Shown: positions 12,652-56,432 of the stretch, in pieces | Layout of the letters: each line of letters opens with the position of its first letter | Numbering within the stretch: the stretch's first letter is position 1 | The notes under the pieces: generated by a model | What the model saw: only the letters and a program-made list of their open reading frames with translations | What the model was told of the DNA's origin: nothing | Databases searched by the model: none | Assembly: GCA_026707325.1 (NCBI GenBank) | Contig: JAPOXA010000082.1 | Coordinates: 14,026-78,025 of the forward strand | Length of the DNA stretch: 64,000 nucleotides | Source: Acidobacteriota bacterium | GTDB lineage: Bacteria; Acidobacteriota; Thermoanaerobaculia; Multivoradales; Multivoraceae | Direction: 5' to 3' | Translations under genes and position numbers: made by a program

Positions 12652-13830
12652 TCACGCGACCACTCCTCCGGCCCGAAGTTCACCGATCTCCCCGGCGGTG
12701 AGTCCAGCCTCGGCGAGGATCTCGTCGCTGTGCTCGCCAGGACCGGGCGCCCGGCACCGCAGCTCGAAGGGCGTTCGGCGCAGCCGGACCGGTTGGCCGA
12801 CGAGACGCACATCTCCGAGTTCGGAGTGCTCAAGCGGCACCGCGATCCCGCAGTGCTCGACCTGCGGGTCGGCGAAGGTCTGTCCCACGTCGTAGACCGG
12901 GCCGCACGGCAGACCGGCTTCGTTGAGCAGCGCGACGATCTCATCCACCTCGAAGCGCCGCGTCAACTCCGCGACCTCCTCCTCGAGCCGGGCACGGTTG
13001 GCGACTCGTCCGGCCGAGTTCCGGTACTCCGGACGCTCAAGAAGCTCCTCGCCGCCGAGCGCCTGGCACATCGCCCGAAAGTGCTTGCCGCTGGTGGCCG
13101 CGATGTTGACCCAGCCGTCGGCGGCCGGGAACGTCCCCATCGGCGAGATCGTCGGGTGGTGGTTGCCCTGCTGGCCGGGAACCTCACCCTCGACGAGGTA
13201 GCGGGCGGCCTGGAAGTCGAGCATGCCGATCATCGCCTTGAGCAGTGACGTGCTCACCCACTGCCCTTCGCCCGACCGTTCGCGCTCGCGGAGGGCCGCC
13301 ATGATGCCGAAGGCGAGGTAGAGCCCGGCCGCCAGGTCGGAGATCGCCGTGCCGACCCGGACAGGACCCTGGCCCGGCAGGCCGGTCACCGACATCAACC
13401 CGCCCAGGCCCTGGGCGATCTGGTCGACGCCGCCCCGTTCCCGGTATGGCCCGGTCTGGCCGAAGCCGGACACGCTGGCGTAGACGATGCGCGGGTTGAC
13501 CGCCCGCACCGTCTCGTAGTCGAAACCGAGGCGGTGCTTCACGTCGGAGCGGTAGTTCTCGACCAGTACGTCCGCGTCCCGGGCCAGACGCAGCAGCACC
13601 TCGCGGCCTTCGTCCTTCTTCAGGTCCAGCGTCAGGCAGCGCTTGTTGCGGTGGAGGTTCTGGTAGTCGTGGCCGAGCCGCCGGGAGATGCCGATCTCCT
13701 TGCCGGGCGCCGGCGGACGCTCGATCCGCACGACGTCGGCGCCCCAGTCCGCGAGCTGCCGCACCGCGGTCGGCCCGGCGCGGGCGATCGTCAGGTCGAG
13801 GACCCGGAGGTCCGCCAGGGGAAGTGACAT
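12652..13830 (-). CDS. Family III CoA-transferase (CaiB/BaiF-like)
   Basis: The N-terminus LRVLDLTIARAGPTAVRQLADWGADVVRIE and the 392-aa length are typical of the family. Confidence 0.85.
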   Translation of the reverse strand: MSLPLADLRVLDLTIARAGPTAVRQLADWGADVVRIERPPAPGKEIGISRRLGHDYQNLHRNKRCLTLDLKKDEGREVLLRLARDADVLVENYRSDVKHRLGFDYETVRAVNPRIVYASVSGFGQTGPYRERGGVDQIAQGLGGLMSVTGLPGQGPVRVGTAISDLAAGLYLAFGIMAALRERERSGEGQWVSTSLLKAMIGMLDFQAARYLVEGEVPGQQGNHHPTISPMGTFPAADGWVNIAATSGKHFRAMCQALGGEELLERPEYRNSAGRVANRARLEEEVAELTRRFEVDEIVALLNEAGLPCGPVYDVGQTFADPQVEHCGIAVPLEHSELGDVRLVGQPVRLRRTPFELRCRAPGPGEHSDEILAEAGLTAGEIGELRAGGVVA

Positions 13831-13839
13831 CGCGAGGGC

Positions 13840-14571
13840 TCAGACTTCGGGCACCGCCCCGGCCGGCGTCGGCTCGGGAGGCGTCTCGAGTTCCTTGAAG
13901 ATCCAACCAAGCGCCGCCTCGACCTGAGGCTTCGCCCCTTCCTCCACCACATCGCCGTGGCACGGAATCAGACGGTCGAACGGGCACTGCAACAGGCGCA
14001 GACAGCTCGCCGCACAGGCCGCGCGGTCGCGGATGGAGAGCCGGATGATTCGGCTCATCGCGACCCGACGGCTGACTCCGGTGAGACGAAAGTAGAGGGA
14101 CGCAAGCCAGCCCAGGTCCTGCTGCAGGTTGAACAGCAGGTCGGCCACGAGCAACGTCCCGCTCGGGCGGTGGCAGAAGGCGACCTCGTTGAAGGAGGGC
14201 ATCCCGTCGATGGGAATCGGCTGCAATTCCGCGCCCCACGCGGAGGCAACGCCCAACGTTCCCGTAAACGCAATGTCTTTGCGCTTCTCCGCCAAACCGG
14301 GAGCGCCAAGAACATCAGCCTCCGGAAAGCGCGCCGTGGCCGCGGGCAGATGAAGGTGGTGGAAGCGGTTCGGCGCAACCAGGTATCGGACCGGGCCGAG
14401 GCTCTGAATCTCCTCCGCCATCCGGTCGTCGATCGGCCCCGGCGAGTACAACCACAGCTCCCCGTCGCCCAGGCGAACAACCGTCATGCGGGCGGGCACC
14501 GTGAAGCCCATGGGGATCTTCTGGTCGTGGTCGGCGATCCAGAGATCCCGGCATATCTCCCTGAGCGCCAT
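13840..14571 (-). CDS. DUF4336 domain-containing protein
   Basis: Starting from MALREICRDLWIADHDQKIP (ATG 14571) gives 243 aa. The remainder of the 595-aa track ORF is antisense to hemB. Confidence 0.65.
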   Translation of the reverse strand: MALREICRDLWIADHDQKIPMGFTVPARMTVVRLGDGELWLYSPGPIDDRMAEEIQSLGPVRYLVAPNRFHHLHLPAATARFPEADVLGAPGLAEKRKDIAFTGTLGVASAWGAELQPIPIDGMPSFNEVAFCHRPSGTLLVADLLFNLQQDLGWLASLYFRLTGVSRRVAMSRIIRLSIRDRAACAASCLRLLQCPFDRLIPCHGDVVEEGAKPQVEAALGWIFKELETPPEPTPAGAVPEV

Positions 14572-14670
14572 GGCGGCAAGTATAGGTCCGGTCCCATGGA
14601 ACCGGCGGCGTCGAAGGGCGCGCCGGCGCACGCGGTCGCGGCCGGCTCCATGCGCGTAGAATCCCCGGCC

Positions 14671-15651
14671 ATGCGCCAGTTGCCCATCCGTCCCCGCCGC
14701 AACCGGCGCTCCGCGGCGATCCGCTCCCTGGTCCGCGAGACGGACCTCGGGCCGGACCGGCTGATCTATCCGCTCTTCGTCATGGAGGGCCGGGACGCGG
14801 CAGTCCCGATCGACTCGATGCCCGGGCAGGCACGGCTGACGATCGACCGCCTGGTCGCCGAGAGCCGAGCCGCGCACGGGCTCGGCGTGCCGGCCGTGGC
14901 GCTGTTCCCGGCAGTCGAGGACGACCTGAAGGACCGCACCGCCAGCGGCGCCCTCGACCCCGACGGTCTGGTCCAGCGCGCCGTGGGTGAACTCAAGTCG
15001 GCGTTGCCGGAGCTGCTCGTCATCACCGACGTGGCGATGGACCCGTACTCCAGCGACGGCCACGACGGACTGGTCGAGGACGGCGAGATCCTGAACGACC
15101 CGACGCTCGAGATCCTCGCCGCTACCGCGGTCTCCCAGGCGGACGCCGGCGCCGACGTCATCGCCCCCTCGGACATGATGGACGGCCGCGTGGGAGCGAT
15201 CCGCACCGCCCTCGACGCCGCCGGCCACGCCCAGGTCGGGATCCTGAGCTACACCTCGAAGTACGCCTCGAACTTCTACGGCCCGTTCCGCGACGCCCTG
15301 GACTCGGCGCCCCGCGCCGGCGACAAGAAGACGTACCAGATGGACCCGGCGAACGTCCGCGAGGCCGTGCGCGAAGCCCTCCTCGACGTCGAGGAGGGCG
15401 CCGACGTGGTCATGGTCAAGCCCGCCCTCGCCTACCTCGACGTGATCCGTGCCGTTCGGGAGGCGGTCGACCTGCCAGTCGCGGCCTACCAGGTGAGCGG
15501 CGAGTACGCGATGATCCAGGCGGTCGCCGCGAACGGCTGGATGGACGGCGACGCCCTGATGCTGGAGACGCTGACCTCGATTCGCCGCGCCGGAGCCGAC
15601 ATGATCCTGACCTACTTCGCACGCCACTGCGCGGAAGTCCTGAACCGGTGA
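14671..15651 (+). CDS. hemB: Porphobilinogen synthase (delta-aminolevulinate dehydratase), Asp-rich non-zinc type
   Basis: The N-terminus is MRQLPIRPRRNRRSAAIRSLVRET. The metal-site block is DVAMDPYSSDGHDG (Asp in place of Cys). Active-site Lys regions are VMVKPA and YQVSGEY. Length is 326 aa. Confidence 0.92.
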   Translation: MRQLPIRPRRNRRSAAIRSLVRETDLGPDRLIYPLFVMEGRDAAVPIDSMPGQARLTIDRLVAESRAAHGLGVPAVALFPAVEDDLKDRTASGALDPDGLVQRAVGELKSALPELLVITDVAMDPYSSDGHDGLVEDGEILNDPTLEILAATAVSQADAGADVIAPSDMMDGRVGAIRTALDAAGHAQVGILSYTSKYASNFYGPFRDALDSAPRAGDKKTYQMDPANVREAVREALLDVEEGADVVMVKPALAYLDVIRAVREAVDLPVAAYQVSGEYAMIQAVAANGWMDGDALMLETLTSIRRAGADMILTYFARHCAEVLNR

Positions 15652-17252
15652 AACGCGGCCTGTTCCCAGCGTGCCTCACCGCGCTCGGCGTGCCTCTCGT
15701 CCTGGGAGCCTGCGCCGCGGAACCGGATGCGCCGGCATCCTCGCCGGCTGCCGCGGCCGCGACGGAGCGACCGCCGAACATCGTCTTCTTCCTGGTCGAC
15801 GACATGGGATGGCGTGACGTCGGCGTCTTCGGCAGCACGTTCTACGAGACGCCCCACATCGACGCCCTCGCCGAGCAGGGCGTGCGCTTCACCAACGCGT
15901 ACGCGGCGACGCACGTCTGTTCGCCCACGCGGGCCTCGCTCCTGACGGGCAAGTACCCGGCAAGGCTCCGCCTGACGGACTGGTTGCCGGGCCGAAGGGA
16001 GCATGCCTTCGAACGGCTGTTGAGCGCCGAGAAGCTGGCGGCCCTGCCGCTGGAGGAAGTGACGCTCGCCGAAGCGCTCCAGGAACACGGCTACAGCACG
16101 GCGATCCTCGGCAAGTGGCACCTCGGCGGCGCCGAAGCAGGACCGCTCCACCAGGGCTTCGACGTGCAGGCGCCCGACTTCCCCGGCTCGACCCCGCGCG
16201 GCGGCTACTTCCCGCCGTACCTGATGGCGGGACTGGTCGTCGAAGGCGAGGAAGACGAGTACCTCACCGACCGCCTGACCGACTTCGCCGTCGAGTTCAT
16301 CGAACAGAGCCAGGACGGTCCCTTCTTCCTCTACCTGTCGCACTTCGCCGTGCACGACCCGATCGAGGGACGCCCGGACCTCGTCCTGAAGTACCGCGAG
16401 AAGGCGGCGCGAATGGAACCCCCCGCCGGGCCGGCCTTTCTCCTGGAAGGCAACCCCGACGATCCCGAACCGCTTTCGCGCGCGCAACTGAACGCTCTCC
16501 TGGAGCAGCCGTCGCATCAAGAGCACGGCGTACTACCCCAGGACACCGTCAAGATCAAGCAGCACCAGGACAACGTCGAGTTCGCGGCGATGGTCACCGC
16601 CATCGACGACAGCCTGGGGCGCGTGCAGAGCGCCCTCGACCGGCTGGGGCTGACCGAGAACACGATCGTCGTCTTCTACTCGGACAACGGAGGGATGGCA
16701 GCGGCCAATCTCGGCAATCCCGCGAGGAAGATACCCCCCGATCTGCTGGACGTCGCCTACTCCACGTCGAACCTGCCGCTGCGCGGCGCCAAGGGCTGGC
16801 TGTACGAGGGCGGGATCCGGGTTCCGCTCATCGTGCGCTGGCCGGGAGCGGGCCAGACCGGCGCGGTCCGCGACGAGCCGGTCATCAGCCCCGACTTCTA
16901 TCCCACGCTGCTGGAGATGGCCGGCCTGCCCGCCAGACCCGATCAGCACGTCGACGGCACGAGCTTCGCCGCGGCGCTCCAGGGCCAGGACTTCGAGCGC
17001 GGAGCGATCTACTGGCACTTTCCCCACTACAGCAATCACGGGATGCAGAGCCCGGGCGGCGCGGTCCGCGATGGCGCCTGGAAGCTGCTGGAGTACTTCG
17101 AGAACGGCACGGTGCAGCTCTTCGACCTGGAGAACGACCCGGGCGAGCAGCGCGATCTCGCCGCCGAGCAGTCCGCGAAAGCCGCTGAACTCCGTGACCG
17201 GCTCCACGCCTGGCGCGAGTCCGTGTCGGCGGCGATGCCGCGGAGTCGGTAG
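15648..17252 (+). CDS. Sulfatase (formylglycine-dependent, arylsulfatase A-like), lipoprotein
   Basis: The GTG start overlaps the hemB stop (GTGA). The lipobox is LVLGAC. Family blocks are LVDDMGW and CSPTRASLLTG (the C-x-P-x-R formylglycine motif). Confidence 0.88.
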   Translation: MKRGLFPACLTALGVPLVLGACAAEPDAPASSPAAAAATERPPNIVFFLVDDMGWRDVGVFGSTFYETPHIDALAEQGVRFTNAYAATHVCSPTRASLLTGKYPARLRLTDWLPGRREHAFERLLSAEKLAALPLEEVTLAEALQEHGYSTAILGKWHLGGAEAGPLHQGFDVQAPDFPGSTPRGGYFPPYLMAGLVVEGEEDEYLTDRLTDFAVEFIEQSQDGPFFLYLSHFAVHDPIEGRPDLVLKYREKAARMEPPAGPAFLLEGNPDDPEPLSRAQLNALLEQPSHQEHGVLPQDTVKIKQHQDNVEFAAMVTAIDDSLGRVQSALDRLGLTENTIVVFYSDNGGMAAANLGNPARKIPPDLLDVAYSTSNLPLRGAKGWLYEGGIRVPLIVRWPGAGQTGAVRDEPVISPDFYPTLLEMAGLPARPDQHVDGTSFAAALQGQDFERGAIYWHFPHYSNHGMQSPGGAVRDGAWKLLEYFENGTVQLFDLENDPGEQRDLAAEQSAKAAELRDRLHAWRESVSAAMPRSR

Positions 17253-44159: not shown

Positions 44160-47100
44160 GTGCCGCTTCCAATGAACCCGCCCCTGCCGCCCGAAGAAGG
44201 CCAGGTCCTGACCGGGCCTCAGTTCAGCGAACCCATGCGCGTGGTGACCGCGGCGGGCAACGGCCTCGGAGGCTGGAAACTCGGTCTGGTCGGCACTCGG
44301 ACCCAGCTCTTTCGGCAGGTGTCGCTCGACGACGCGCAACTCTCCGAACTGACTGCGACCGACGGCGCCTTCCGCTACGACGGCGACGGCGGGCTCCTCC
44401 GGCTCGGCCTCGATGCCCACGCGCTCGGCATCGCCTGGGAGTTCGACCCGTACTTCGGACTGTCGGTGTCCCGGGTCGACCCGCTACCGCACCAGCTTGA
44501 AGCCGTCTACGACCACCTCCTCAAACCGGCGCGAGTGCGGTTCCTGCTGGCCGACGACGCGGGCGCCGGCAAGACGATCATGTCCGGCCTGCTCCTTCGC
44601 GAGCTCCAGTTGCGCGGCCTTGCCGAACGCACTCTGATCGTGGCCCCGTCCAACCTGACGTTCCAGTGGCAGCGGGAGTTGCGCGAGAAGTTCGAGCAGA
44701 GCTTCGTCGTGCTGAAGGGCGCCGAGCTGCGCGCCCAGTATGGCGTCAACCAGTGGATGGACCGCAACCGGATCATCACCTCGCTCGACTTGGCGAAGCG
44801 CGACGAGATCCTCCCCGGCCTGAAGCAGGCGCGCTGGGACCTGGTCATTGTCGACGAGGCGCACCGAATGTCGGCACGCGACGAGTCCCACAAGAGCCTG
44901 CGCTACAAGCTCGGCGAACTGCTTCGCGACACCTGCGACCACCTGTTGCTGCTGACAGCGACGCCGCACAAGGGCGACCCGGAGAACTTCTCCCTCTTCC
45001 TCCAGCTTCTCGACCGCGACGCCTACGCGAACGTGACCTCCATCCGCCACGCACTGCACCATGGCTACGCGCCGTTCTACCTCCGCCGCACGAAGGAGGC
45101 GATGGTCCACTTCCCGCAGCGCGACGCGAACGGCGAGTGGGTCGTGCGGCCGATCTTCACGCGGCGCATCCCCAGCACCGCGGGTTTCTCCATCGAGGGC
45201 GCCGAGCACGATCTGTACCGGGAAGTCACCGAGTTCGTGAAGCGGCAGAGCAGGCTGGCGGCCGAACGCGACGATCCACGGGGCCGCGCCATGGGCTTCC
45301 TGATGGCCCTCTACCAGCGCCGCCTGGCGTCCAGCACCCGTGCCCTCTTCCGCAGTCTGTGCAACCGGGCGGAGCGGCTCGAACAGGCGCTTGCGAAGGC
45401 GCACGATCTGGCCAGCGGCGCGCCGTCCGATCTGCCGAGCATCGACGACCTCGAAGACCTTGAGGAGATGGAAGAACAGGAACGCGAGCGCGTACTGGAA
45501 CTCATCGAGGCCATCTCCCTGACGGACAACGCGGACGCGATCCGCGAGGAGGTCGCGGAGCTGCGCGCGCTCGCCCTCCGCGCCGAGGCGGTCGAAGGGC
45601 AGGGGGTCGAGGCGAAGCTCACCAGACTCGAGCGGCTCCTGCGAAGAGACGGCTTCTTCGATCGCCCGGACCAGCGCCTGGTGCTGTTCACCGAGTTCAA
45701 GGACACGCTGGACTACCTGGTCGAGAAGCTGCGCGGCTGGGGCTTCCGGGTCGCCACCATTCACGGCGGCATGAAGCCAGGCAGCCGCGACGAGCCGGGC
45801 ACCAGGCTGCACGCAGAGCAGCAGTTCCGTGAAGGCGCGGTGCAGGTGCTCGCAGCCACGGAAGCGGCCGGCGAGGGGATCAACCTGCAGGTCTGCAACG
45901 TGCTCTTCAACTACGACATCCCGTGGAACCCGAACCGACTTGAACAGCGGATGGGGCGCATCCACCGCTACGGGCAGGAGAAGGACTGCCTGATCTTCAA
46001 CTTCGTCGCCACCAACACCGTCGAGGGGCACGTCCTGGAGCGCCTGCTCGAAAAGCTGAAGGAGATTCGCAACGCGCTCGACGACGACGCCGTGTTCAAC
46101 GTGGTCGGCCAAGTGCTTCCGGCGTCCCGGATGGAGCGGCTCCTCCGCGACTACTACGCGGGACGTCTCGGCCAAGAAGACCTGGAAGAGCGCATGCTGC
46201 GGCCCGTGGAAGAGTCGCGCTTCCGCGACATCTGCCGGAACGCCCTGGAGGGCCTTGCCTCTAAGAAGCTGAACCTGGAGATGCTCGTCGAACGCCGCGC
46301 CCGGGCCCGCGAACGTCGCGTGGTCCCGGAGACCATCGCCCGCTTCCTTCGTGAAGCCGCGCCGCGGACAGGTCTCGACCTTCGCTTCCTTCGCGGCGTG
46401 AAACTGCGGCATGCGTTCGAGCCCGGTCGGACACCCGCTGGCCTGCGCCGGTACCAGCGCGACGAGGACTGGCGGTTGGCCGACCTCGCCACGCGCTATC
46501 CCCGCTGCAGTACCGACCGCGACACTGCCCGAAACCACAACCTCGAGTGGGTCACGCCCGGCCATCCGCTGTTCGAAGCAGTGCGCAGGCATACCCGCGA
46601 CGAGGCGGCTGACCCGCTACGAAGCGGCGCCACGTTCCACTCCCTGGATCACGTGGAACCCTCGCGCATCGACTTCTACCGGGCCCAAGTCATCGACGGG
46701 ATGGGCTCCGTGGTCCAGGAGAAGCTGCTCGCCGTGGAGCTCGGCGCAGGCGGCGGCGAGCACCTGGAGCGCCGCGAACCCGGCGTTCTCGGCAACCTGA
46801 CGCCAGCCCCGGCGCCCGAGGAGCTTCCGGCCGTCACCTTCGCGCCCGCTCCCGAAACCTGGCTACACGAACAGGTGCTACGCCCTTGGCTCGAGAAGAC
46901 CCGTGCCGAACGCGACGCCGAGGTGGAGCGTGTCGTCGACCACGTGCAGCGGTCCCTCACAGAGCTCCTGAACCGGGCGGATGACGAGATTGGCCGCGCC
47001 GCGCTCGAGGTGGAGGCCGGGCGCCGTGGCGCGGAGGGCCGGTTGAAGAGAGCCGAACTCCGGCACGACGAACTGTCCGCCCGCCGCACGCGCCGACTCG

Positions 47101-47603
47101 AGGAACTGGAACGCCAGCGCTCCCTCACCCTCCAGGGCGTCGAGCGGATCACCAGCGTTCTCGTTCTACCGCACCCGGAACGCGGCGCTGCTGACGTCAA
47201 GCGTCATCGGCCGGATCCGGCGACCGAGATGACCGCCATGCGCGTGGTGATAGAGCACGAAGAGGCCGAAGGGCGGCGCACGGAGGATGTGAGCGCGAAG
47301 AACCTCGGCTACGACGTCACCAGCCTCGACCCGAACTCCGGCGATCTACGCCTCATCGAGGTCAAGGGCCTGGCCGCCAGGAGCGGCACCATCCTGCTGA
47401 CGCCGAACGAGCGCCGCGTAGCCGAGGACCGTCCGGATTGCTACTGGCTGTACGTCGTCACCGACTGCGCTACCACGCCGGTTCTCCGGGACCCGGTCCG
47501 GAACCCGGCGCGGAAACCGTGGGTCGAGGTAAAGAAGGTGCAGCACTACTATCTCGACGTTGAGAAGCTGAGCGCCGCGCCCGACCAACGGAGCGACCGG
47601 TGA
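44160..47603 (+). CDS. SNF2-family helicase with C-terminal DUF3883-like PD-(D/E)xK nuclease-fold domain
   Basis: Motif I is LLADDAGAGKT, motif II is VIVDEAHRMS and motif VI is QRMGRIHRYGQ. The C-terminus reads GYDVTSLDPNSGDLRLIEVKG...YWLYVV. The start is GTG at 44160 or ATG at 44172. TACAAT at 44154-44159 abuts the start. Confidence 0.88.
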   Translation: MPLPMNPPLPPEEGQVLTGPQFSEPMRVVTAAGNGLGGWKLGLVGTRTQLFRQVSLDDAQLSELTATDGAFRYDGDGGLLRLGLDAHALGIAWEFDPYFGLSVSRVDPLPHQLEAVYDHLLKPARVRFLLADDAGAGKTIMSGLLLRELQLRGLAERTLIVAPSNLTFQWQRELREKFEQSFVVLKGAELRAQYGVNQWMDRNRIITSLDLAKRDEILPGLKQARWDLVIVDEAHRMSARDESHKSLRYKLGELLRDTCDHLLLLTATPHKGDPENFSLFLQLLDRDAYANVTSIRHALHHGYAPFYLRRTKEAMVHFPQRDANGEWVVRPIFTRRIPSTAGFSIEGAEHDLYREVTEFVKRQSRLAAERDDPRGRAMGFLMALYQRRLASSTRALFRSLCNRAERLEQALAKAHDLASGAPSDLPSIDDLEDLEEMEEQERERVLELIEAISLTDNADAIREEVAELRALALRAEAVEGQGVEAKLTRLERLLRRDGFFDRPDQRLVLFTEFKDTLDYLVEKLRGWGFRVATIHGGMKPGSRDEPGTRLHAEQQFREGAVQVLAATEAAGEGINLQVCNVLFNYDIPWNPNRLEQRMGRIHRYGQEKDCLIFNFVATNTVEGHVLERLLEKLKEIRNALDDDAVFNVVGQVLPASRMERLLRDYYAGRLGQEDLEERMLRPVEESRFRDICRNALEGLASKKLNLEMLVERRARARERRVVPETIARFLREAAPRTGLDLRFLRGVKLRHAFEPGRTPAGLRRYQRDEDWRLADLATRYPRCSTDRDTARNHNLEWVTPGHPLFEAVRRHTRDEAADPLRSGATFHSLDHVEPSRIDFYRAQVIDGMGSVVQEKLLAVELGAGGGEHLERREPGVLGNLTPAPAPEELPAVTFAPAPETWLHEQVLRPWLEKTRAERDAEVERVVDHVQRSLTELLNRADDEIGRAALEVEAGRRGAEGRLKRAELRHDELSARRTRRLEELERQRSLTLQGVERITSVLVLPHPERGAADVKRHRPDPATEMTAMRVVIEHEEAEGRRTEDVSAKNLGYDVTSLDPNSGDLRLIEVKGLAARSGTILLTPNERRVAEDRPDCYWLYVVTDCATTPVLRDPVRNPARKPWVEVKKVQHYYLDVEKLSAAPDQRSDR

Positions 47604-47666: not shown

Positions 47667-48263
47667 ATGCCTGACACGAGACAAGTCCACGAGCTGCTGG
47701 CACAGATCGACCGCGGCGAGATCCTCCTGCCCGAGTTCCAGCGCGGCTACGTCTGGCGACGCGACCAGGTTCGCGGGCTGGTGCAGTCCATGTACCGGCG
47801 GCACCCGACCGGGCATCTGTTGATCTGGAAGACCTACAAGCCGTCCAAGGTGCGCGGCGCCAAGGCGTCAGAGGAAGGAAGTTCCCTTCTACTGCTCGAC
47901 GGCCAGCAACGGCTGACCTCGCTCTACACCCTCTTCGAAGGCAAGCCACCGCCGTTCTACGAGGGCGAGTCCCTCTTCTTCGACCTCCACTTCAACGTGC
48001 AGACCCAAGAGTTTCGCTTCTACCAGAAGTCGCAGATGCTCAACAATCCGGCTTGGGTCAGCGTTCACGACTTTCTGGGACAGGGCCTTGGGACCTTCGT
48101 CAGCGGCCTTCACACCATGGCGAAGGAGCGCCGGGAAACGCTGGAACCGAACCTGGCACGGCTCGCCGACCTCGATGGCATCCGCAACTACACCTACGCC
48201 GTCGACCATGTCTCCGACGAGGACTACACCGTCGAGGAATCGTCGGCATCTTCAACCGCGTGA
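47667..48263 (+). pseudogene. DUF262 (GmrSD N-terminal, ParB-like) domain, 5' fragment of a frameshifted gene
   Basis: The ATG at 47667 has GGAGA 5 nt upstream; an alternative ATG is at 47655. Family blocks are LLPEFQRGYVW and LLDGQQRLTSL. This frame ends at 48263, but the homology continues in the -1 frame from about 48236. Confidence 0.8.
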
Positions 48264-49780
48264 ACAGCGCCGGAACGCCGCTGACCAAGGCGGACCTGGC
48301 GATCGCGCATATCTGCAGCCTGTGGCCCGAGGCGCGTGGCGAGTTCCGCGCTTTCAGCGCGAAACTGGGAGACAACGGCTTCCCGTTCGACCTCGACTTT
48401 CTCGTCCGCTGCCTGGCCGGAGTTGCGACCGGGTCCGTTCTGCTCGAAGGGTCCTTTCTGCGAACCCCAGCCGAAACGCTCCAGAAGGGCTGGGCACGGC
48501 TTCAGCCAGCGCTCGAGCACCTGGTGGGCGTGCTGCGCCACGAAGCGCTGGTCTCCAGCCCGCGCGACCTGCCGACGACGACCATGCTCATACCAGCGAC
48601 CGTGTACCTCGCGCGGCAGGGCGGTCGGTTTCCCAGCGAGGCCATCCGCCGCCGGTTCATCCGCTGGATGTTCCTCGCCGCCTTGTGGGCCCGCTACTCC
48701 GGCTCCGCCGAGACCAAGCTCCAGCAGGACGTGGCCCTGGTCGCAAACGGTGACCCGGATCCGGTCCCCGAACTGGAAGCGGCCATCCTTCGCGAGCGCG
48801 GCCGCGTCGTCCTGGAAGAGGGCGACCTCGACCGGGCGACTGTCATTTCCGCCGTCGCCTATCTGGTGCGCATAGTCGCACGGCACCGAAACGCCCGCGA
48901 CTGGTTCACCGGTGTCCACGTCTACGACCGCGCTACAGGTCGAAGCGCCGGCGGGGAACGACACCACGTCTTCCCGAAGAAGATCCTGGAGCAGGCCGGC
49001 ATGACGGACACCCGGCGCATCAACGCTGTGGCGAACCGCGTTCTCCTGACCCGGAAGCCCCCCCTGGAGATCCGCAAGTCCTCTCCCGCGGACTATCTGC
49101 CCCACGTGCATGAGACCCAGCCCGACGCCCTGCGAGCCCAGTCCGTCCCGTTAGACCCGGAACTGTGGGAACCGGAGAACTTCCTCGACTTCCTGGCCGC
49201 GCGGCGCGGGTTGCTGGCCGAAGCAGCCAACGAGTTCATCGCCTCCTGGCTGCCGCCCAAGGGCGCCGACCCGCACAGCGAGCAGTACGTCCGGGAGCTC
49301 ATCGCAAGCGGCGAGAGCGACGCACTGGAGTTCAAGTCCAGCCTGCGCTGGGACCTAACCGAACAGCGAGTGAACAAGACGGTCGAACTCATGACGATCA
49401 AGAGCGTGGCCGGCTTCCTGAACAACGACGGCGGCACCCTGCTGATCGGCGTCGGCGACGACGGAGAGCCTCTCGGCCTTCAGCGCGACTTCGAGACCCT
49501 GAGCAAGAAGCCCGATCGCGACGGTTTCGAACTCCACCTACAGCAGCTCTTCATCCGGACCTTCGGCGAGGCGACCGCCTCGTCCTTCCTCACCGTGAAC
49601 TTCCACCAGATCGACGGCCGAAACATCTGCCAGGTGACGGTGGAGCCAAGCGATCATCCGGTCTATGTAGAGCAGAAGGGCCAGCAGGCAGCGTTCTGGC
49701 TGCGCGTGGGCAACGCGACGCGGTCCCTGCCGATCAACGAGGCGGTGCGCCACATCCAGACCCGCTGGAGCGGCAGGTGA
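48236..49780 (+). pseudogene. 3' fragment: remainder of DUF262, DUF1524/HNH-like region and C-terminal AlbA_2 (Schlafen-type) domain
   Basis: GIVGIFNRVNSAGTPLTKADL completes DUF262. The HNH-like block is ERHHVFPKKIL...NAVANRVLL. The AlbA_2-like block is ESDALEFKSSL...VAGFLNNDGGTLLIGVGDDGEPLG. Confidence 0.8.
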
Positions 49781-49799: not shown

Positions 49800-50444
49800 A
49801 TGGCGCCCCCAGATCGCCTTACCCGCCACGCCCAGGAGAGAATCGGCGACCGGCTGTCAACGGCGCCCGACGAGGTGGCCGCGATCCTCGATCACGATCT
49901 TGCAGTTCTCCTGGGCACGGACTCCGGACGCCTTCACCGCTTGTTCTTCAGCCCTGCCGATGAGCAGTGCTTCGTAGCGGTTCAGGACCAAGAGAAGGGA
50001 GATGTCGTCACGATTCTCCCGCTTGACTACCACTCGTCGCTGGCATGGGAGGTCCCCCTTGAAGCGCAGGAAAGGGCCGAGCTCTTGCTGCTGGGCTCGA
50101 AGCGCTCTGCCGCGCAGGCGGCTGAGAGAGAGGAGCCGCCATCTGACCCGGAGCCTCCCAACGCCACCACGACCGGTGGTGAGTCGGCTGGCTCGGGCAC
50201 GTTTCGTATTCGCTGCTACGTCCTCACACCAGACGGTCAGATACGTGGTCGGGGTCTGGGCTCGATGCCTCTTGCCAGGGTGGGTGGCGATCTTTCCGTC
50301 GTCCCCAAGTTCGACGACGTACTGGCGGAGATTCGTCAACGCGTCGAAGAGACTCTTCAGCAGGATGAGATGCTTGAACTTGTGTTTGTCACCCGGCGCG
50401 ACGAGACGGTAACCATCGACGACTCCAGGCGATGGGGTCGATGA
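49800..50444 (+). CDS. Hypothetical protein (two small globular halves joined by a Pro/Glu/Thr linker)
   Basis: The ATG is 20 nt after the preceding stop, on the same strand, with good GC3 bias. The N-terminus RLTRHAQERIGDRLS...DVVTILPL weakly recalls DUF4258-type small toxins. No confident family assignment is possible. Confidence 0.55.
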   Translation: MAPPDRLTRHAQERIGDRLSTAPDEVAAILDHDLAVLLGTDSGRLHRLFFSPADEQCFVAVQDQEKGDVVTILPLDYHSSLAWEVPLEAQERAELLLLGSKRSAAQAAEREEPPSDPEPPNATTTGGESAGSGTFRIRCYVLTPDGQIRGRGLGSMPLARVGGDLSVVPKFDDVLAEIRQRVEETLQQDEMLELVFVTRRDETVTIDDSRRWGR

Positions 50445-50508: not shown

Positions 50509-51423
50509 GTGACGGCCTCTGGAATCCCCCGCGAGTGCAGGCGCCTAGCGGAGGTCGACTTCCCCATCGCCGAGGTGTCGAGGCACGCGGCCCGCGAGAA
50601 GTCGATCCGGCATGGCCACCCCTCCACTCTCCACCTGTGGTGGGCTCGGCGGCCTCTGGCATCGAGCCGGGCGGTACTCCTCGCCCTACTCCTGCCTGAC
50701 CCGTGCGACGAGCACTGCCCAGAGGAGTTCAAGCGCCGGGCGCGCGAGTTCCTGAGCCCGGTTCGGCAACCGCCAAAGACTGACGTCGAACTCAGAAAGG
50801 CGCTGCTCTGGTTCATCGGCTCGTTCGCCAACTGGGACATGGCCGCCCACAAGACCTACTTGCAGGTGGGCCGGAATCTGGTGCGAGCGGCCCACGGCGG
50901 AGACGATCCGCCCCTGGTGGTCGACCCGTTCGCCGGCGGCGGCTCCATCCCCCTGGAGGCCCTCCGCCTCGGCTGCGACGCCTTCGCCTCGGACCTGAAC
51001 CCGGTCGCCTGCCTGATTCTCAAGGTGATGCTGGAGGACATTCCGCGCCACGGCCCGGGTCTGGCCGACGAACTCCGTCGCGTCGGCGGCGAGATCAAGG
51101 CGGCGGCCCAGCAGGAACTGGCCGACCTCTACCCGCCCGACCCGGACGGCGCCACGCCCATCGCCTACCTCTGGGCGCGCACGGTGCGCTGCGAGGCGCC
51201 GAACTGCGGCGCGGAGATCCCGCTGATGCGCTCGTTCTGGCTGTGCAGGAAGCCGAAGCGCAAGTGGGCCCTCCGGCCGACGGTCGTGCGTCGGACCGCG
51301 TCGACCGGGCACTCGACTGGCGGCCCCGGATCTGCTAAGGCTACCCAGAGCCCAGAGCCCAGAGCCCAGAGCCCAGAGCCCAGAGCCCAGAGCCGAGTTC
51401 GAGATCTACGAGCCGCGTGCTGA
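50509..51423 (+). CDS. DUF1156 adenine-specific DNA methyltransferase, N-terminal part (frame broken at heptanucleotide repeat)
   Basis: The GTG start has GGAGGA 7 nt upstream. The DUF1156 block is EVDFPIAEVSRHAAREKSIRHGHPSTLHLWWARRP. SAM motif I is VVDPFAGGGSIPLEA. The first Zn-knuckle is CEAPNC. The frame runs through the repeat and stops at 51423. Confidence 0.88.
   Translation: MTASGIPRECRRLAEVDFPIAEVSRHAAREKSIRHGHPSTLHLWWARRPLASSRAVLLALLLPDPCDEHCPEEFKRRAREFLSPVRQPPKTDVELRKALLWFIGSFANWDMAAHKTYLQVGRNLVRAAHGGDDPPLVVDPFAGGGSIPLEALRLGCDAFASDLNPVACLILKVMLEDIPRHGPGLADELRRVGGEIKAAAQQELADLYPPDPDGATPIAYLWARTVRCEAPNCGAEIPLMRSFWLCRKPKRKWALRPTVVRRTASTGHSTGGPGSAKATQSPEPRAQSPEPRAQSRVRDLRAAC
51344..51392 (+). 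repeat. Perfect tandem heptanucleotide repeat (CCCAGAG)x7 inside the methyltransferase gene
   Basis: Seven uninterrupted 7-nt units were read directly from the sequence. Three units make 21 nt and encode PEPRAQS in every phase. The two halves of the methyltransferase lie in different frames on either side. Confidence 0.97.
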
Positions 51424-53575
51424 CGAAGACGTAGCCGCCGGAACCGTCTCCCGCGCCCGGGCCACCTGCCTCTGCTGCGGCTCGGTGTTGCCGCCGGAGC
51501 GCGTCCGGGCGCAACTCTCGGCACAGCGTGGCGGCGCCGACGCCGTGTTCGACGAGGCCGGGAACCGCGTGGGCGGCGCGCGGCTGACCGCTGTGGTCAC
51601 CGTGCGGCCCGACGAGAAAGGGCGACACTACCGTCTGCCTACCGAAGAAGACTATGCGGCAGTGTACCGGGCACAAGAACTGGTGGCGGGTTCGTTGAGC
51701 GAGTGGGAGCGCGACGGCAAGCAGAATCTGTGCCCGGTGCCGGATGAGCCGCTACCGCCGGTCGGGACACTGGGCTTCCGCGTGCAGCGCTACGGCATGG
51801 CGCGGTGGGGCGACTTGTTCACGGCGAGGCAGAAGGCCACGTCGAACGGACTCGTCGACTTGCTGCTAAGGGCTAAGTGCCGAGTGCCCGATCAGGAACG
51901 ACTACTGGCCTGCTCCTTCAGTCGTATTGCGATGAGCAACATGTCCTGCACTCGATGGAACGCGGTCGCGGAGAAGATGCAGCACACCTTCGGGCGGCAA
52001 GCGCTGCCTATCGTCTGGGACTTCGCCGAAGTGGTCGTCACGGCCCCGGGGCCCGGAAACTGGGAGAGCGCCTACCGGCTGCCCAGTGACATTGTAGAGG
52101 CCGCATGTAGTCCAGAGCCTGGCCAAGTCCAACCCGCCGACGCCACCAACCACCCACTCCCAGACGAGACCGTCGGTGTCTGGTTCACCGACCCGCCCTA
52201 CTACGACGCCATCCCCTACTCGGACCTCTCCGACTTCTTTCTGGTCTGGCTGAAGCGCACTCTCCCGGGCCACCCGCTGCTTCGCGACCCGTTCGACTCG
52301 ACCAACCCGCTGTCGCCGAAGGCGGCCGAGGCGGTGCAGGACGAGACCAAGGAGGTCGACGGGCGCCCCAAGGACCGGGCGTGGTTCGAGGAGACGATGG
52401 CCCGCGCGTTCGCGGAGGGCCGGCGACTCCTGCGCCAGGACGGCGTCGGCGCCCTCGTCTTCGCCCACAAGACGACGGAGGGCTGGGAGGCGCTGCTCTC
52501 CGGGATGATCCGCGGCGGCTGGACCGTCACCGCGTCCTGGCCGCTCGCGACCGAGATGGGCTCCCGTCTGCGCGCTCGGGATTCCGCCGCTCTCGCGACC
52601 TCCATCCACCTGGTCTGCCGCCCCCGGCCCGAGGACGCGCCGGTCGGCGACTGGGCCGAGGTGCTCCGCAAGTTGCCCGTCCGCGTCGGCGACTGGATGG
52701 AGCGGCTGCAGGGCGAGGGCATTCGCGGCGCGGACCTGGTCTTTGCCTGCATCGGACCTGCCCTGGAGATCTTCAGCCGCTACTCGCGGGTCGAGATGGC
52801 GGACGGCAGTGAGGTGGGCCTGCCCGCATACCTGGAGAAGGTCTGGGAGGTGGTGGGCCGCACGGCGCTCGAGAACGTGCTGGGCGCGGCCGAGGCGAAG
52901 GCGCGAAACGGACTCGCCGGGGCGCTGGAAGAAGACGCTCGGCTGACCGCCCTGTTCCTGTGGACGCTGCAAACGACCTCCGCAGCCGACGACGGGGAGG
53001 GCACGAAAAAGGGCGGAAGTCCGCCAGAAACGGACCAACAACCGAGCGGTGTCGGCGCGAAGGGCTACTCACTGGCCTTCGACGTCGCGCGACGCTTCGC
53101 CCAGCCGCTCGGCATTGACCTGCCGAAGTGGGAGAAACGCATCGTCGAGACCAAGAAGGGCGTAGTCCGCCTGCTGCCCGTGTCCGAACGGGCGAAGCGC
53201 CTGTTCGGGGAAGGCGGCTCGGCGGCAGTGGCCAAGGCGCTGGAGCAACCGGGTGGGGCTCAACGCGACCTGTTCGCAGGAACCGCGGTGCAAGCAAGCG
53301 AACTCGCCGCGACACGAGGCGGCTTCCGCTCGTCGGCCGACGACCCGGACGCCGGCGCCGCCCCGGAGGAAGGCGCCACCACGCTCGATCGCGTCCACAC
53401 CGCGATGCTGCTACAGGCTGGCGGCCTCACCCATGCTTTGCGCAACCTTGTCGCCGCCGAACGGGAACGCAGCCCCGACTTCGAGCGCCTGGCGAACGCC
53501 CTCTCCGCGCTCTACCCGCGCGGCAGCGAAGAGAAACGACTGTTGGACGCCATGTTGCTCGTATCTCCCAGATAG
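51395..53575 (+). CDS. DUF1156 adenine-specific DNA methyltransferase, C-terminal part
   Basis: This frame is open from 51227. Homology resumes right after the repeat (EFEIYEPRADEDVAAGTVSRARATCLCCGSV, the second Zn-knuckle). Catalytic motif IV is FTDPPYYD. The first in-frame start codon is only GTG at 51485, so independent translation is unlikely. Confidence 0.85.
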   Translation, partial: EFEIYEPRADEDVAAGTVSRARATCLCCGSVLPPERVRAQLSAQRGGADAVFDEAGNRVGGARLTAVVTVRPDEKGRHYRLPTEEDYAAVYRAQELVAGSLSEWERDGKQNLCPVPDEPLPPVGTLGFRVQRYGMARWGDLFTARQKATSNGLVDLLLRAKCRVPDQERLLACSFSRIAMSNMSCTRWNAVAEKMQHTFGRQALPIVWDFAEVVVTAPGPGNWESAYRLPSDIVEAACSPEPGQVQPADATNHPLPDETVGVWFTDPPYYDAIPYSDLSDFFLVWLKRTLPGHPLLRDPFDSTNPLSPKAAEAVQDETKEVDGRPKDRAWFEETMARAFAEGRRLLRQDGVGALVFAHKTTEGWEALLSGMIRGGWTVTASWPLATEMGSRLRARDSAALATSIHLVCRPRPEDAPVGDWAEVLRKLPVRVGDWMERLQGEGIRGADLVFACIGPALEIFSRYSRVEMADGSEVGLPAYLEKVWEVVGRTALENVLGAAEAKARNGLAGALEEDARLTALFLWTLQTTSAADDGEGTKKGGSPPETDQQPSGVGAKGYSLAFDVARRFAQPLGIDLPKWEKRIVETKKGVVRLLPVSERAKRLFGEGGSAAVAKALEQPGGAQRDLFAGTAVQASELAATRGGFRSSADDPDAGAAPEEGATTLDRVHTAMLLQAGGLTHALRNLVAAERERSPDFERLANALSALYPRGSEEKRLLDAMLLVSPR

Positions 53576-53618: not shown

Positions 53619-56432
53619 ATGGCATCAGAACCCTGGTACAAGGTCGTCCAACCGCGGCGCGAGGTCCGGCAGGGCCGCTCGTTCAACCCGGACGAGTTCG
53701 CGATCGCGCTGGAGCAGGTCGTAGCAGGCACCGCGCCCGAGGACTACCGCGATGCCGAGGCGTTCTTCGCCCGTACGTGCTTCACGCGGGCACTGCGGGA
53801 ACACACAGCGATGGTCCTCCGGCGGCTCAGCGGAGAGACAGTGAACGCTGCGCCGGTGACGACCCTGGTAACCCAGTTCGGCGGCGGCAAGACTCACGCC
53901 CTGGCGTCGCTCTACCACCTGGTGCGGTCACCGGAGAAAGCGGAGAGCGTCGCCGAAGTAGGCAGCCTGTTGCAGGAGATCGGGCTGACCGAGATCCCAC
54001 ATGCTCGGGCGGGAGTGTTCGTCGGCAACGCCTGGGACCCGGGAGAGGGGCGCGAGACGCCGTGGATCGACCTGGCCCGGCAGCTTTCGGGCAGCGACGG
54101 TGTCGCCTGCCTCGGGCCTGCCGCCCGGACCACGCCGCCCGGTACCGAGGCGCTCGGCCGGGTGTTCCAGGCCGCCGGCAGGCCGGTCCTCCTGCTGTTC
54201 GACGAAGTACTCAACTTCGTCAACCGCCATCGCAGTATGGCCGACGCGTTTCACGCGTTCCTTCAGAACCTCACCGTTGCAATGACCGGCGCCACCCACG
54301 GTGCCGCGGTGATCAGCCTGCCGCGAAGCCAGGTCGAGATGACCGACTTCGACCTCATCTGGCAGGACCGGATCACCAAGGTCGTTCGCCGCGTGGCAAA
54401 GGACCTGATTGCCAACGACGAAGCGGAAGTCAGCGAGGTCGTTCGCCGTCGCCTGTTTGAATCGGATGGCGCTGAGCGTGTGCAAAGAAGGGTCTCGAAG
54501 GCTTACGCCGACTGGTGCTTCGAGCGCCGCGAGCGGCTGCCGCCCGAGTGGACGCTGGTGGACAGCACCACGGAGAAGAAAGCCCGCGAACACCTGCGGT
54601 CCCGCTTCGAAGCGTGTTACCCGTTTCACCCCGCCACCCTCTCCGTCTTCCAGCGCAAGTGGAACGCCCTGCCGCAGTTCCAGCAGACTCGCGGCACGCT
54701 CGCCATGCTGGCTCAGTGGGTTTCCTGGGCGCAGCGCGACGGCTACAGGGAAGCCCGGACCGAACCGCTGATTACCCTCGGGTCGGCGCCGCTGCACGAT
54801 CCGCACTTCGTGGCCGTCGTGCTCGGGCAACTCGGCGAGCCCAGGCTCGCCGGTGCCATCGACGTGGACATCGCCGGCGAACGGGCCCACGCCCGGGGAC
54901 TCGACCGGGATACGAAGGGACCGCTCCGCTCGATTCACCGACGCGTGGGCGCCGCGATCCTGTTCGAGTCGTCCGGCGGCCAGGTCGACAAGACGGCGCA
55001 CCTGCCGGAACTCCGGTTCGCGCTCGGCGAGCCGAACGTGGACACGACGTCGGTCGACTCAGCGGCTCTGGATCTCGAGCGGCGCGGCTACTTCGTTCGC
55101 CGGGTGGGAGGCGGCTTCCGCGTTCACCACCAGCCGACGATCCGCAAGGTGGTGAGCGACCGCCGAGCCGCACTGGACGAGCAGGACGAGATCCGACCGG
55201 CTGTACGCAACCTGGTGAAGGAGGAGTTCGACCGCCGCGCCGCGATTCCCCGGGTGTTCTTTCCTGAAGACGGCGCCGCGGTGCCGGATTCACAGAAGCT
55301 GACCCTCGTTGTCATCGACCCGGAAGCTGCGTGGACGGGCGAAGACGCAAGCGATCTGCGTGGGCGGATCGTCCGGTGGACCCGCGAGCGCGGCAGTGCG
55401 CCCCGCCTGTATCCCGGCGCTCTGATCTGGGCCGTCAAGAAGCCCGGCCGCGAACTCCGCGACCGGGTGGAGCAGTGGCTGGCCTGGAAGCGCGTCGACG
55501 AAGAGGTCCGGGGCGGCACGCTGGGCGCGGAGATCGACGGCTCCGAAAGAGCCGCCCTCGCCAAGAACCTGCGCGACGCCGAGCACGCGGCAAAAGAGGA
55601 GGTGGGGGGCGCCTACCGCTTCCTCCTCTATGCGGACGGCGCCGAGCCGGACCGCATCGCGGTCATCGACCTGGGCGCGGGCCACTCCGGCAGTGCCGAC
55701 AGCCTTTGCGGACGCGCACTGGCGGCGCTCCGGTCGCGCGGCCTGCTGAACGACTCGGTGGGTGCCAGCTACGTCGAGCGCAACTGGCCGCCAGCCAACA
55801 GCGAGACTGGCGCATGGCCTCTGTCGATGCTGCGAAAGTGCTTCCTCGACGGGTCGCTCACCCGGTTGATCGACCCGGAGGCGGTCCTGCGAAGCAGCAT
55901 CGTCGAGTGGGTCGCGGATGGCGAGTTCGGGCTCAGCTCGGGCGGCGACGGTGAAGGCTTGCTGTATGTGCCGGAGCGTGTCTGGTACCGGGAGCCCGTT
56001 CCTCCCGAGGAGGTCATGTTCGATCCAGATATCTGCCTGCTGAAGAGGAAGGTCGCCGAACGGCTGCAAGCGGCTGAAGGCGAACCGCAGAGCGACCGGG
56101 AGATGGAACAGCACAAGGGCCAGGGCTTCGAGCTTGCCGTCGGCGGACCGTCCGAAGCGGTCGGTAGCTCGACACCGGTCGAACCGGAGGGCGCGACGAG
56201 CACTGTGCGGCTACGCCTGGAAGGCGAGATCCCGTCGGGCGCCTGGAACCGCGTTGGCCTCAAGCTGCTGCCAAGGCTGCGGGCCACCGCCAACCGCGAC
56301 CTGACCGCATACGTCCGGCTGGAGGCGGCAACCGACGGCGCCGCCGCCGACGCCCTCGTCAGGGACCTCCGGCGCGCGTTGGACGACCTGAATCTCGCCG
56401 ACCACGTCCGCATTGAGAGCGAGCCGGACTAG
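53619..56432 (+). CDS. DUF499 domain ATPase (COG1483-like)
   Basis: The ATG at 53619 has GGAGA upstream. The N-terminus MASEPWYKVVQPRREV...FARTCFTRAL is typical. The P-loop is TQFGGGKTHALASLYHL. The track N-terminal extension to 53253 overlaps the methyltransferase 3' end. Confidence 0.85.
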   Translation: MASEPWYKVVQPRREVRQGRSFNPDEFAIALEQVVAGTAPEDYRDAEAFFARTCFTRALREHTAMVLRRLSGETVNAAPVTTLVTQFGGGKTHALASLYHLVRSPEKAESVAEVGSLLQEIGLTEIPHARAGVFVGNAWDPGEGRETPWIDLARQLSGSDGVACLGPAARTTPPGTEALGRVFQAAGRPVLLLFDEVLNFVNRHRSMADAFHAFLQNLTVAMTGATHGAAVISLPRSQVEMTDFDLIWQDRITKVVRRVAKDLIANDEAEVSEVVRRRLFESDGAERVQRRVSKAYADWCFERRERLPPEWTLVDSTTEKKAREHLRSRFEACYPFHPATLSVFQRKWNALPQFQQTRGTLAMLAQWVSWAQRDGYREARTEPLITLGSAPLHDPHFVAVVLGQLGEPRLAGAIDVDIAGERAHARGLDRDTKGPLRSIHRRVGAAILFESSGGQVDKTAHLPELRFALGEPNVDTTSVDSAALDLERRGYFVRRVGGGFRVHHQPTIRKVVSDRRAALDEQDEIRPAVRNLVKEEFDRRAAIPRVFFPEDGAAVPDSQKLTLVVIDPEAAWTGEDASDLRGRIVRWTRERGSAPRLYPGALIWAVKKPGRELRDRVEQWLAWKRVDEEVRGGTLGAEIDGSERAALAKNLRDAEHAAKEEVGGAYRFLLYADGAEPDRIAVIDLGAGHSGSADSLCGRALAALRSRGLLNDSVGASYVERNWPPANSETGAWPLSMLRKCFLDGSLTRLIDPEAVLRSSIVEWVADGEFGLSSGGDGEGLLYVPERVWYREPVPPEEVMFDPDICLLKRKVAERLQAAEGEPQSDREMEQHKGQGFELAVGGPSEAVGSSTPVEPEGATSTVRLRLEGEIPSGAWNRVGLKLLPRLRATANRDLTAYVRLEAATDGAAADALVRDLRRALDDLNLADHVRIESEPD

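Follow-up and report, generated by a model that had tools for sequence, protein, structure and literature searches.

A perfect heptanucleotide repeat splits the methylase gene of an Acidobacteriota Hma locus and probably acts as a reversible on/off switch

Results

A perfect heptanucleotide tract divides hmaB into two reading frames

The stretch of DNA analysed here (the window) comprises 64,000 nt of contig JAPOXA010000082.1 from an Acidobacteriota bacterium. It carries a locus which, judged by its gene content, is an Hma system, also called a Type-1 DUF499-centred defence system and related to bacteriophage exclusion (BREX). The DUF1156 methylase gene of this locus, hmaB, is split by seven perfect units of CCCAGAG into an upstream and a downstream part that lie in different reading frames (Table 1). 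In our view this tract is probably a repeat-mediated, reversible frame switch, with the window carrying its OFF state.

Using Tandem Repeats Finder, the tract was recovered with a period of 7, 7.3 copies, 100% matches and a score of 102, the top score of all tandem repeats in the window. The perfect repeat of 51 nt is far beyond chance expectation: 60 dinucleotide-preserving shuffles of the window gave a maximum of 22 nt and a mean of 18. The second-longest perfect tandem repeat of the real window spans 29 nt and is built from an in-frame 9-nt unit. The flanking sequence of the repeat was searched for further copies as a test of a mobile-element origin, and none were found within the window. 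The minus strand of the tract reads (CTCTGGG)n and matches the G3N4 G-quadruplex consensus, a property that the octamer repeats of related loci (see below) do not have. Such a G-quadruplex-like strand could help replication slippage.

The upstream frame starts at GTG 50509, which is preceded by the Shine-Dalgarno sequence GGAGGA. It encodes the DUF1156 domain, the S-adenosylmethionine (SAM) motif I DPFAGGGS (50923-50946) and the first Zn knuckle CEAPNC (51190-51207), and ends in an out-of-frame tail. The second knuckle CLCC (51467-51478) and the catalytic motif IV TDPPYYD (52187-52207) were both found in the downstream frame. This frame is shifted by +1, is open after TGA 51224-51226 and is closed by TAG 53573-53575. 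Its first ATG, GTG or TTG codon is GTG 51485, and the annotation by gene callers is limited to GTG 51485-53575 (696 aa). Rebuilding the gene with 3, 6 or 9 units yielded one open reading frame (ORF) of 1012, 1019 or 1026 aa, respectively, and all other unit counts within 4-11 led to truncation at 297-317 aa. An initial annotation of this DNA had described seven perfect units inside a DUF1156 methylase, an upstream frame that terminates at 51421-51423 after 304 aa, motifs I and IV in different frames with the tract between the two Zn knuckles, a single ORF at 6 or 9 copies, and the lack of a start codon between the stop at 51224-51226 and GTG 51485. All of these points were borne out by the repeat search, ORF reading and motif mapping.

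Repeats occupy the same loop in orthologous genes and in a second lineage

Related loci from other assemblies share a chromosomal context of peptidase M14, hmaA (where present), GmrSD, nucleotidyltransferase (NTase)/HEPN pairs, hmaB, hmaC, a helix-turn-helix (HTH) gene, an SSF transporter and a Tricorn-like peptidase, and because of this common context they were treated as orthologous. The initial annotation had proposed to look for simple-sequence repeats at the same loop of orthologous DUF1156 genes, and such repeats do exist, as 7-nt, 8-nt and G-run types (Table 1). In the GACGCTCG alleles frame status tracks the unit number modulo 3, which is the pattern to be expected from a repeat that sets the frame on its own. 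The G-runs belong to a second, unrelated HmaB lineage with a different genomic context (L170, L171). Further truncated alleles of this lineage are P0191, P0252 and P0253, and the close relative P0254 is full length and has no G-run. The ON:OFF ratio of the poly-G lineage is uninterpretable, since a truncated fragment served as the search seed and long G-runs are prone to error.

Screening 1.54 Mb from 90 sources and 0.71 Mb from 80 more HmaB loci for other perfect non-homopolymer repeats of at least 20 nt yielded none, one 11-mer excepted. In these approximately 2.25 Mb of HmaB-containing sequence such repeats are thus extremely rare, yet concentrated at the loop. The 11-nt exception, (GGGACCAAGTC)x3.9, is located outside genes in L162 (5655-5697), about 300 nt upstream of another hmaB. 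A scan of Joint Genome Institute (JGI) metagenomes added one close relative, L090, whose contig is chimeric with a mis-join about 70 nt upstream of the repeat and is uninformative.

Comparison of the orthologues also revealed a mosaic structure of hmaB. The N-terminal part of the window gene has about 91% nucleotide identity to L001, L004 and L008, and the C-terminal part 80% to L001 and L004, 89% to L008 and 86% to L010. Such a pattern points to recombination or to a swapped target-recognition region.

The repeat lies in a loop that accepts insertions

The HmaB family comprises more than 8000 clusters with a usual length of 985-1010 aa, and in 201 of 256 examined sequences the stretch between the knuckles measures 70-72 aa. 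A minority carries insertions, and these are confined to a single spot between '...ALRxxVxR' and 'PRVEFEVFEP'; an insertion there is common to the window gene and its nearest relatives. Whole Y1-transposase domains (RAYT-like, PF01797) were found in frame at the same loop in P0052, L101, L137 and L143. Shorter peptides ('HHRDTE...LCLRGEFPH') resembling repetitive extragenic palindromic (REP) elements were seen there in L074, L136 and L154. From these sequences, mobile elements appear to insert preferentially at this loop, and to do so with the ORF kept open.

An AlphaFold2 model of the restored 1019-aa protein, based on an alignment of 48 sequences, was poor overall (mean predicted local distance difference test score, pLDDT, of 51.8; predicted template modelling score, pTM, of 0.35) and was used for local secondary structure only. 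Locally, confident strands at residues 251-260 and 292-298 flank a disordered segment, 265-287, that corresponds to the peptide encoded by the repeat. No relative with a solved structure turned up in a profile search of the PDB at E <= 0.001. Together, the tolerated insertions and the local model place the repeat at the tip of a permissive hairpin, at which a length change that keeps the frame should be harmless.

Tract length differs between otherwise identical haplotypes

All unit counts were taken from assemblies. Comparing the window with L003, a different public assembly (ENA SHAF22-1_SAMEA7723697), 0 mismatches were found over 9,796 + 6,853 nt (16,649 nt), with 7.3 versus at least 8.9 units in the tract. 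In L003 the tract extends over at least 62 nt (8 units + 6 nt) and then runs into a 100-N gap, the sole gap in 16.7 kb. A look-up of the window's 304-aa fragment gave no record, and L003 may stem from the same sample or reads as the window. In the same way, L001 (JGI 3300002147) and L009 (GCA_002238985.1) show 0 mismatches over 10,312 nt and a single 24-nt gap, which corresponds to 3 units. These pairs indicate that the tract changes faster than its flanks gain substitutions. They reflect either real length variation on an invariant haplotype or disagreement of assemblers at the repeat, and real heterogeneity would itself cause such disagreement. The scaffold gap inside the L003 repeat is compatible with heterogeneity, no proof of it.

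Most out-of-frame alleles are restorable, and the gene is under purifying selection

When nothing but the unit number is changed, the ORF regains its full length in the window (6 or 9 units), L004 (18 or 21), L008 (16 or 19) and L007 (4 or 7). The poly-G alleles behave alike: L171 becomes full length at G11/G14, and L170 becomes open to the contig end at G13/G16. In total, tract length alone restores 6 of 8 out-of-frame alleles, or 4 of 6 in the heptamer/octamer clade.

The ratio of nonsynonymous to synonymous substitution rates (dN/dS) of hmaB was 0.08-0.29 for both its N-terminal and its C-terminal part across all pairs, those of two OFF alleles included. For the intact neighbours, values of 0.15-0.25 (hmaC) and 0.09-0.20 (hmaA) were obtained. 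By this measure hmaB, including the part downstream of the frameshift, appears to be under the same purifying selection as the intact neighbouring genes. Lineages sharing the octamer have diverged to a dS of 0.5-0.75 with hmaB still constrained, and the gene has therefore long been functional with the repeat in place.

Gene content and assignment of the locus

The Hma system was reportedly described by Payne et al. in 2021. In the window, the ORF 44160-47603 matches the Pfam domains SNF2-rel_dom, Helicase_C and NOV_C and the PADLOC model HmaA (E = 5.7e-172), as expected for the helicase of an Hma system. The restored hmaB protein matches Pfam DUF1156 (E = 5e-23), has HmaB as its best PADLOC model (PDLC00661, E = 3.8e-105), is 60-86% identical to full-length family members, and combines DUF1156, motif I and the DPPY of motif IV, the features that define HmaB. 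A DUF499 ATPase gene, the hallmark of hmaC, adjoins the methylase gene and has its own Shine-Dalgarno-like GGAGAA. The nearest named relatives are metagenome-assembled genomes of Acidobacteriota (Thermoanaerobaculia, Vicinamibacteraceae), and the GC content of the window is 68.7%.

Other known systems were considered and rejected. The locus is related to BREX and no member of Pgl/BREX Types 1-6, which combine PglZ and BrxC/PglY with PglX (PMC12839542): PADLOC found no matches to PglZ, PglW or BrxC at the locus, and HmaB scored just 15 bits against PglX. Nor is it a Type III restriction-modification system (mod/res), as the top PADLOC models were HmaB and HmaA and no Type III model was among the matches.

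The GmrSD-like gene between hmaA and hmaB is broken by a plain 1-nt deletion at about position 48238 into ORFs of 198 and 506 aa. The deletion (GAGGA-ATCG versus GAGGAGGTCG in relatives) does not lie within any repeat and is common to L003, and the gene is intact (701-704 aa) in L001, L002, L004 and L007. Other defence genes embedded in hma operons are typical of the family (PMC11232893). As a further case, the Vicinamibacteraceae relative L002 has two pairs of an AAA_15/AAA_21 ATPase gene and a small ORF between hmaB and hmaC (13280-16927). The conserved gene directly upstream of hmaB occurs at the same position in L002, L011, L010 and L172 with 67-78% amino acid identity, and this conservation may mark it as an accessory gene of this Hma subtype that has gone unrecognised.

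Table 1. Features of the window and hmaB loop alleles of related loci
Locus	Feature	Position	Strand	Details
Window	Frame-setting tract (CCCAGAG)x7 + CC	51344-51394	+	Tandem Repeats Finder, rebuilt unit counts, shuffles
Window	hmaB N-terminal frame, 7-unit (putative OFF) state, 304 aa	50509-51423	+	GTG 50509, TGA 51421-51423
Window	hmaB C-terminal coding part, +1 frame	51392-53575	+	Knuckle CLCC, variable target-recognition insert, motif IV, C-terminal helical domains
L001	(GACGCTCG)12.9			In frame, 1043 aa
L009	(GACGCTCG)15.9			In frame, 1051 aa
L008	Octamer GACGCTCG x17.4			Out of frame
L172	(GACGCTCG)17			Out of frame
L004	(GACGCTCG)19.9			Out of frame
L007	(GAAGCTCG)6.4			Out of frame
L005/L006	(GACGATCA)4.2			Out of frame
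L002/L011	Complex non-repeat insertion at the loop			In frame
L010	Canonical short loop			In frame
L170	G15 homopolymer at the same loop	8774-8788		Out of frame
L171	G12 homopolymer at the same loop	2404-2415		Out of frame
Window	hmaA, SNF2-family helicase with C-terminal NOV_C (PD-(D/E)XK) nuclease, intact	44172-47603	+	Start from L003 gene call
Window	GmrSD-like (HEC-05-type) restriction gene between hmaA and hmaB, disrupted	47667-49780	+	ORFs 47667-48263 and 48260-49780
Window	Conserved 214-aa gene directly upstream of hmaB	49800-50444	+	No Pfam or PADLOC match
Window	hmaC, DUF499 AAA+ ATPase, 937 aa, intact	53619-56432	+	Pfam DUF499; PADLOC HmaC E = 9.3e-90; L003-based start

Discussion

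The proposed switch and its consequences

The hmaB tract shows the features by which phase-variable genes are usually recognised: a perfect non-triplet repeat inside the ORF, a move between full-length and truncated product by a change of tract length alone, and a polymorphic tract with ON and OFF alleles. In the proposed mechanism, the tract would be a simple-sequence repeat that mutates very readily and encodes part of a loop on the surface of the HmaB Zn-ribbon. Slipped-strand mispairing at replication would add or remove whole 7-nt units, and each change would shift the downstream two-thirds of the gene among the three frames. With unit numbers divisible by three (6, 9), a full-length enzyme would be made that bears a harmless (PEPRAQS)n of variable length at the hairpin tip, and other numbers would give the 297-317-aa stub, which has no catalytic motif. 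The 7-unit allele of the window would then be OFF, and it would switch to ON on losing one unit or gaining two. With a perfect tract and a unit length not divisible by three, the inactivation would be reversible, and we infer that switching may occur at high frequency within populations. The slipped-strand switch claimed in the initial annotation thus stood in its core idea, which is backed by repeats at the same loop, copy-number differences, restorability and selection in comparative sequence data; the switching itself is a prediction from these data.

By analogy with Type III, BREX and MANTIS systems, the OFF state would silence sequence-specific methylation and probably methylase-guided restriction, without causing autoimmunity. 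BREX and Type III systems use the methylase for recognition in restriction. The same holds for MANTIS, where methylation needs MtsABC and restriction needs MtsABCD, and where the methylase complex therefore does the DNA recognition for restriction (bioRxiv 10.64898/2026.09.23.753747). The initial annotation had gone further and expected the switch to toggle the whole defence system and possibly an epigenetic regulon. The former is conjecture that fits MANTIS and is opposed by the Halomonas data discussed below, and the regulon is pure speculation. The switch may be adaptive, as a form of bet-hedging over the cost of defence, DNA uptake or phage counter-adaptation. For the broader idea that the Zn-ribbon loop is a recurrently evolved contingency switch, with 1-, 7- and 8-nt repeats in independent, uncultured, large-genome environmental lineages of the Acidobacteriota and at least one other group, we regard the evidence for and against as evenly balanced.

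Alternative explanations

We are aware that a number of observations weigh against a reversible switch, and most of them would also fit ordinary gene decay, in which a low-complexity insertion in a permissive loop expanded by non-adaptive slippage and the frameshifts reflect simple loss in a dwindling defence island. The plain 1-nt deletion in the adjacent GmrSD gene of the window strain demonstrates that decay of the island does happen. Additional hmaB lesions were found in L005/L006 and L172, and hmaA is truncated in L005. The sole in-frame repeat haplotype (L001/L009) has no hmaA at all, with just a 63-aa ORF between peptidase M14 and GmrSD (L001 780-971; L009 2879-3070). A link between the ON or OFF state and the presence of hmaA was considered, for which the independent haplotypes are too few. 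About 1 of 8 repeat-bearing haplotypes is in frame (7 or 8 are out), which is no better than, and not significantly different from, the neutral expectation of 1/3; the ON:OFF ratio gives no sign of selection for ON, with ascertainment being biased. The Halomonas system, in which HmaA sufficed for defence against T4 and HmaB had no detected effect (PMC11232893), is a further point against a switch that matters for defence. Nevertheless, we consider decay unlikely. Four of the six heptamer/octamer out-of-frame alleles and both poly-G alleles are free of lesions save for tract length. The dN/dS of hmaB equals that of its intact neighbours over a dS of up to 0.75, a divergence that post-dates the origin of the octamer. 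Moreover, decay would have to place three unit classes (1, 7 and 8 nt) at one loop in two lineages, where 2.25 Mb hold nearly none elsewhere.

A further explanation is that the repeat is real but miscounted in the window, the true tract having perhaps 9 or more units, in frame, and the gene being unsplit. The 7-unit count stems from one assembly, and the other assembly of this haplotype, L003, breaks into its 100 Ns within the repeat after at least 62 nt; 9 units would be in frame. The mis-joined L090 contig illustrates that assemblers can fail here. Octamer tracts of 103-159 nt are near or above short-read lengths, so that some of their counts may reflect a choice made by the assembler, and the sequencing of long G-runs is prone to error. 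For the window itself we give little credence to such an artefact. Its 51-nt tract is shorter than ordinary reads of 100-150 nt and should therefore assemble correctly; it is perfect, and the differences between assemblies come in whole units. Repeats were found at this site in ten independent assemblies, including large contigs with names suggesting long reads (L004, L008, L172), and several of the ten are out of frame yet free of errors elsewhere in the gene. True length heterogeneity would produce the same disagreement between assemblies. It appears highly improbable that the 7-unit allele is expressed as an active enzyme anyway, be it by +1 ribosomal frameshifting at CCC-AGA or by reassembly of two fragments. 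The upstream frame does contain two CCC-AGA pairs, a +1 slip at either of which enters the correct frame, and AGA is rare (7 of 403 Arg codons, 1.7%). However, no stimulatory element was identified, and nothing similar in the way of slippery sites or rare codons is present in the octamer and poly-G alleles, so that frameshifting is not a property of the site. Against a split enzyme stand the lack of a Shine-Dalgarno sequence ahead of GTG 51485 (one is present for both hmaB and hmaC), the lack of the second Zn knuckle and of motif I in the product starting there, and break points and tails that differ in every allele. The statement of the initial annotation that the halves are not designed as separate genes was in this way supported.

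Significance of a probable methylase switch

Phase-variable defence methylases are textbook biology of small-genome, host-adapted pathogens. For free-living high-GC bacteria we know of essentially one experimental case, Pgl in Streptomyces. If hmaB is indeed a reversible switch, contingency-locus biology would extend to a dominant and poorly understood soil phylum, and a natural ON/OFF genetic handle on the role of HmaB in Hma systems would be at hand. Split DUF1156 genes might then be switchable rather than dead, which calls for caution among annotators, and a methylase loop tolerating large insertions would be useful for engineering. If the loop has moreover become a switch recurrently, BREX-related defence, and possibly a methylation-dependent regulon, would be phase-variable in free-living soil and sediment bacteria, and Acidobacteriota would have their first recognised contingency locus, one detected directly in metagenomes.

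Comparison with known systems

Phase variation of pglX was reportedly described by Sumby and Smith in 2003. In Streptomyces coelicolor A3(2) the G-tract of pglX, part of the phage growth limitation system Pgl (Type 2 BREX), varies at 1e-2 to 1e-4 (PMC4365076). As in Pgl, the hmaB repeat is a simple-sequence repeat inside the ORF of an N6-adenine methyltransferase of a BREX-superfamily system in a high-GC, free-living, soil-type host; changes in tract length toggle the Pgl system, and the poly-G lineage (L170, L171) uses the same kind of tract. In contrast to Pgl, Hma combines a methylase whose N-terminal domain is DUF1156 with a DUF499 ATPase and an SNF2-nuclease, has no PglZ, PglW or PglY, and carries 7- or 8-nt units in place of a homopolymer. 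Switching was measured for Pgl, while for Hma it is deduced by comparison.

Phase-variable Type III mod and Type I hsdM and hsdS genes (phasevarions) occur in Haemophilus, Neisseria, Helicobacter, Streptococcus suis and others (PMC5909438, PMC7383803), and among Type III mod genes 17.4% carry repeats, environmental species included (PMC5909438). The hmaB tract resembles them in its perfect non-triplet repeat within the ORF, in frame cycling with unit number, in strain diversity of unit and copy number, and in a methylase that doubles as DNA-recognition module of a restriction complex. Phasevarions, however, belong to classical restriction-modification types, mostly have 1-5-nt units, as a rule close to the gene's 5' end, and are mostly found in small-genome, host-adapted bacteria, whereas the repeat of hmaB is placed in a Zn-ribbon loop some 280 codons into a BREX-related methylase gene of about 1000 codons in uncultured Acidobacteriota. 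The claim of the initial annotation that such switching is unknown in a high-GC environmental lineage was wrong in view of pglX of S. coelicolor (PMC4365076) and the environmental mod repeats (PMC5909438).

In its architecture the locus agrees with the Hma systems (PMC11232893), or Type-1 DUF499-centred systems (PMC12839542), with HmaA, HmaB and HmaC and with embedded defence genes between hmaA and hmaB. The methylase of the Type-1 DUF499-centred system is similar to those of Type-3 BREX, with an insert for target recognition that follows core strand 2 (PMC12839542). The Type-2 relative is MANTIS, or Gao_RL, for which the methylase complex is required for restriction (bioRxiv 10.64898/2026.09.23.753747). 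In the literature searched, neither phase variation nor methylase repeats were found in the Hma and MANTIS papers or in connection with DUF1156 or Hma, as the initial annotation had supposed for this methylase family, and there was no report of repeat-based contingency loci in Acidobacteria. The mechanism is hence a known one, and the defence family and the phylum are new. What sets hmaB apart are unusually long repeat units and the convergence of several repeat types on one permissive loop.

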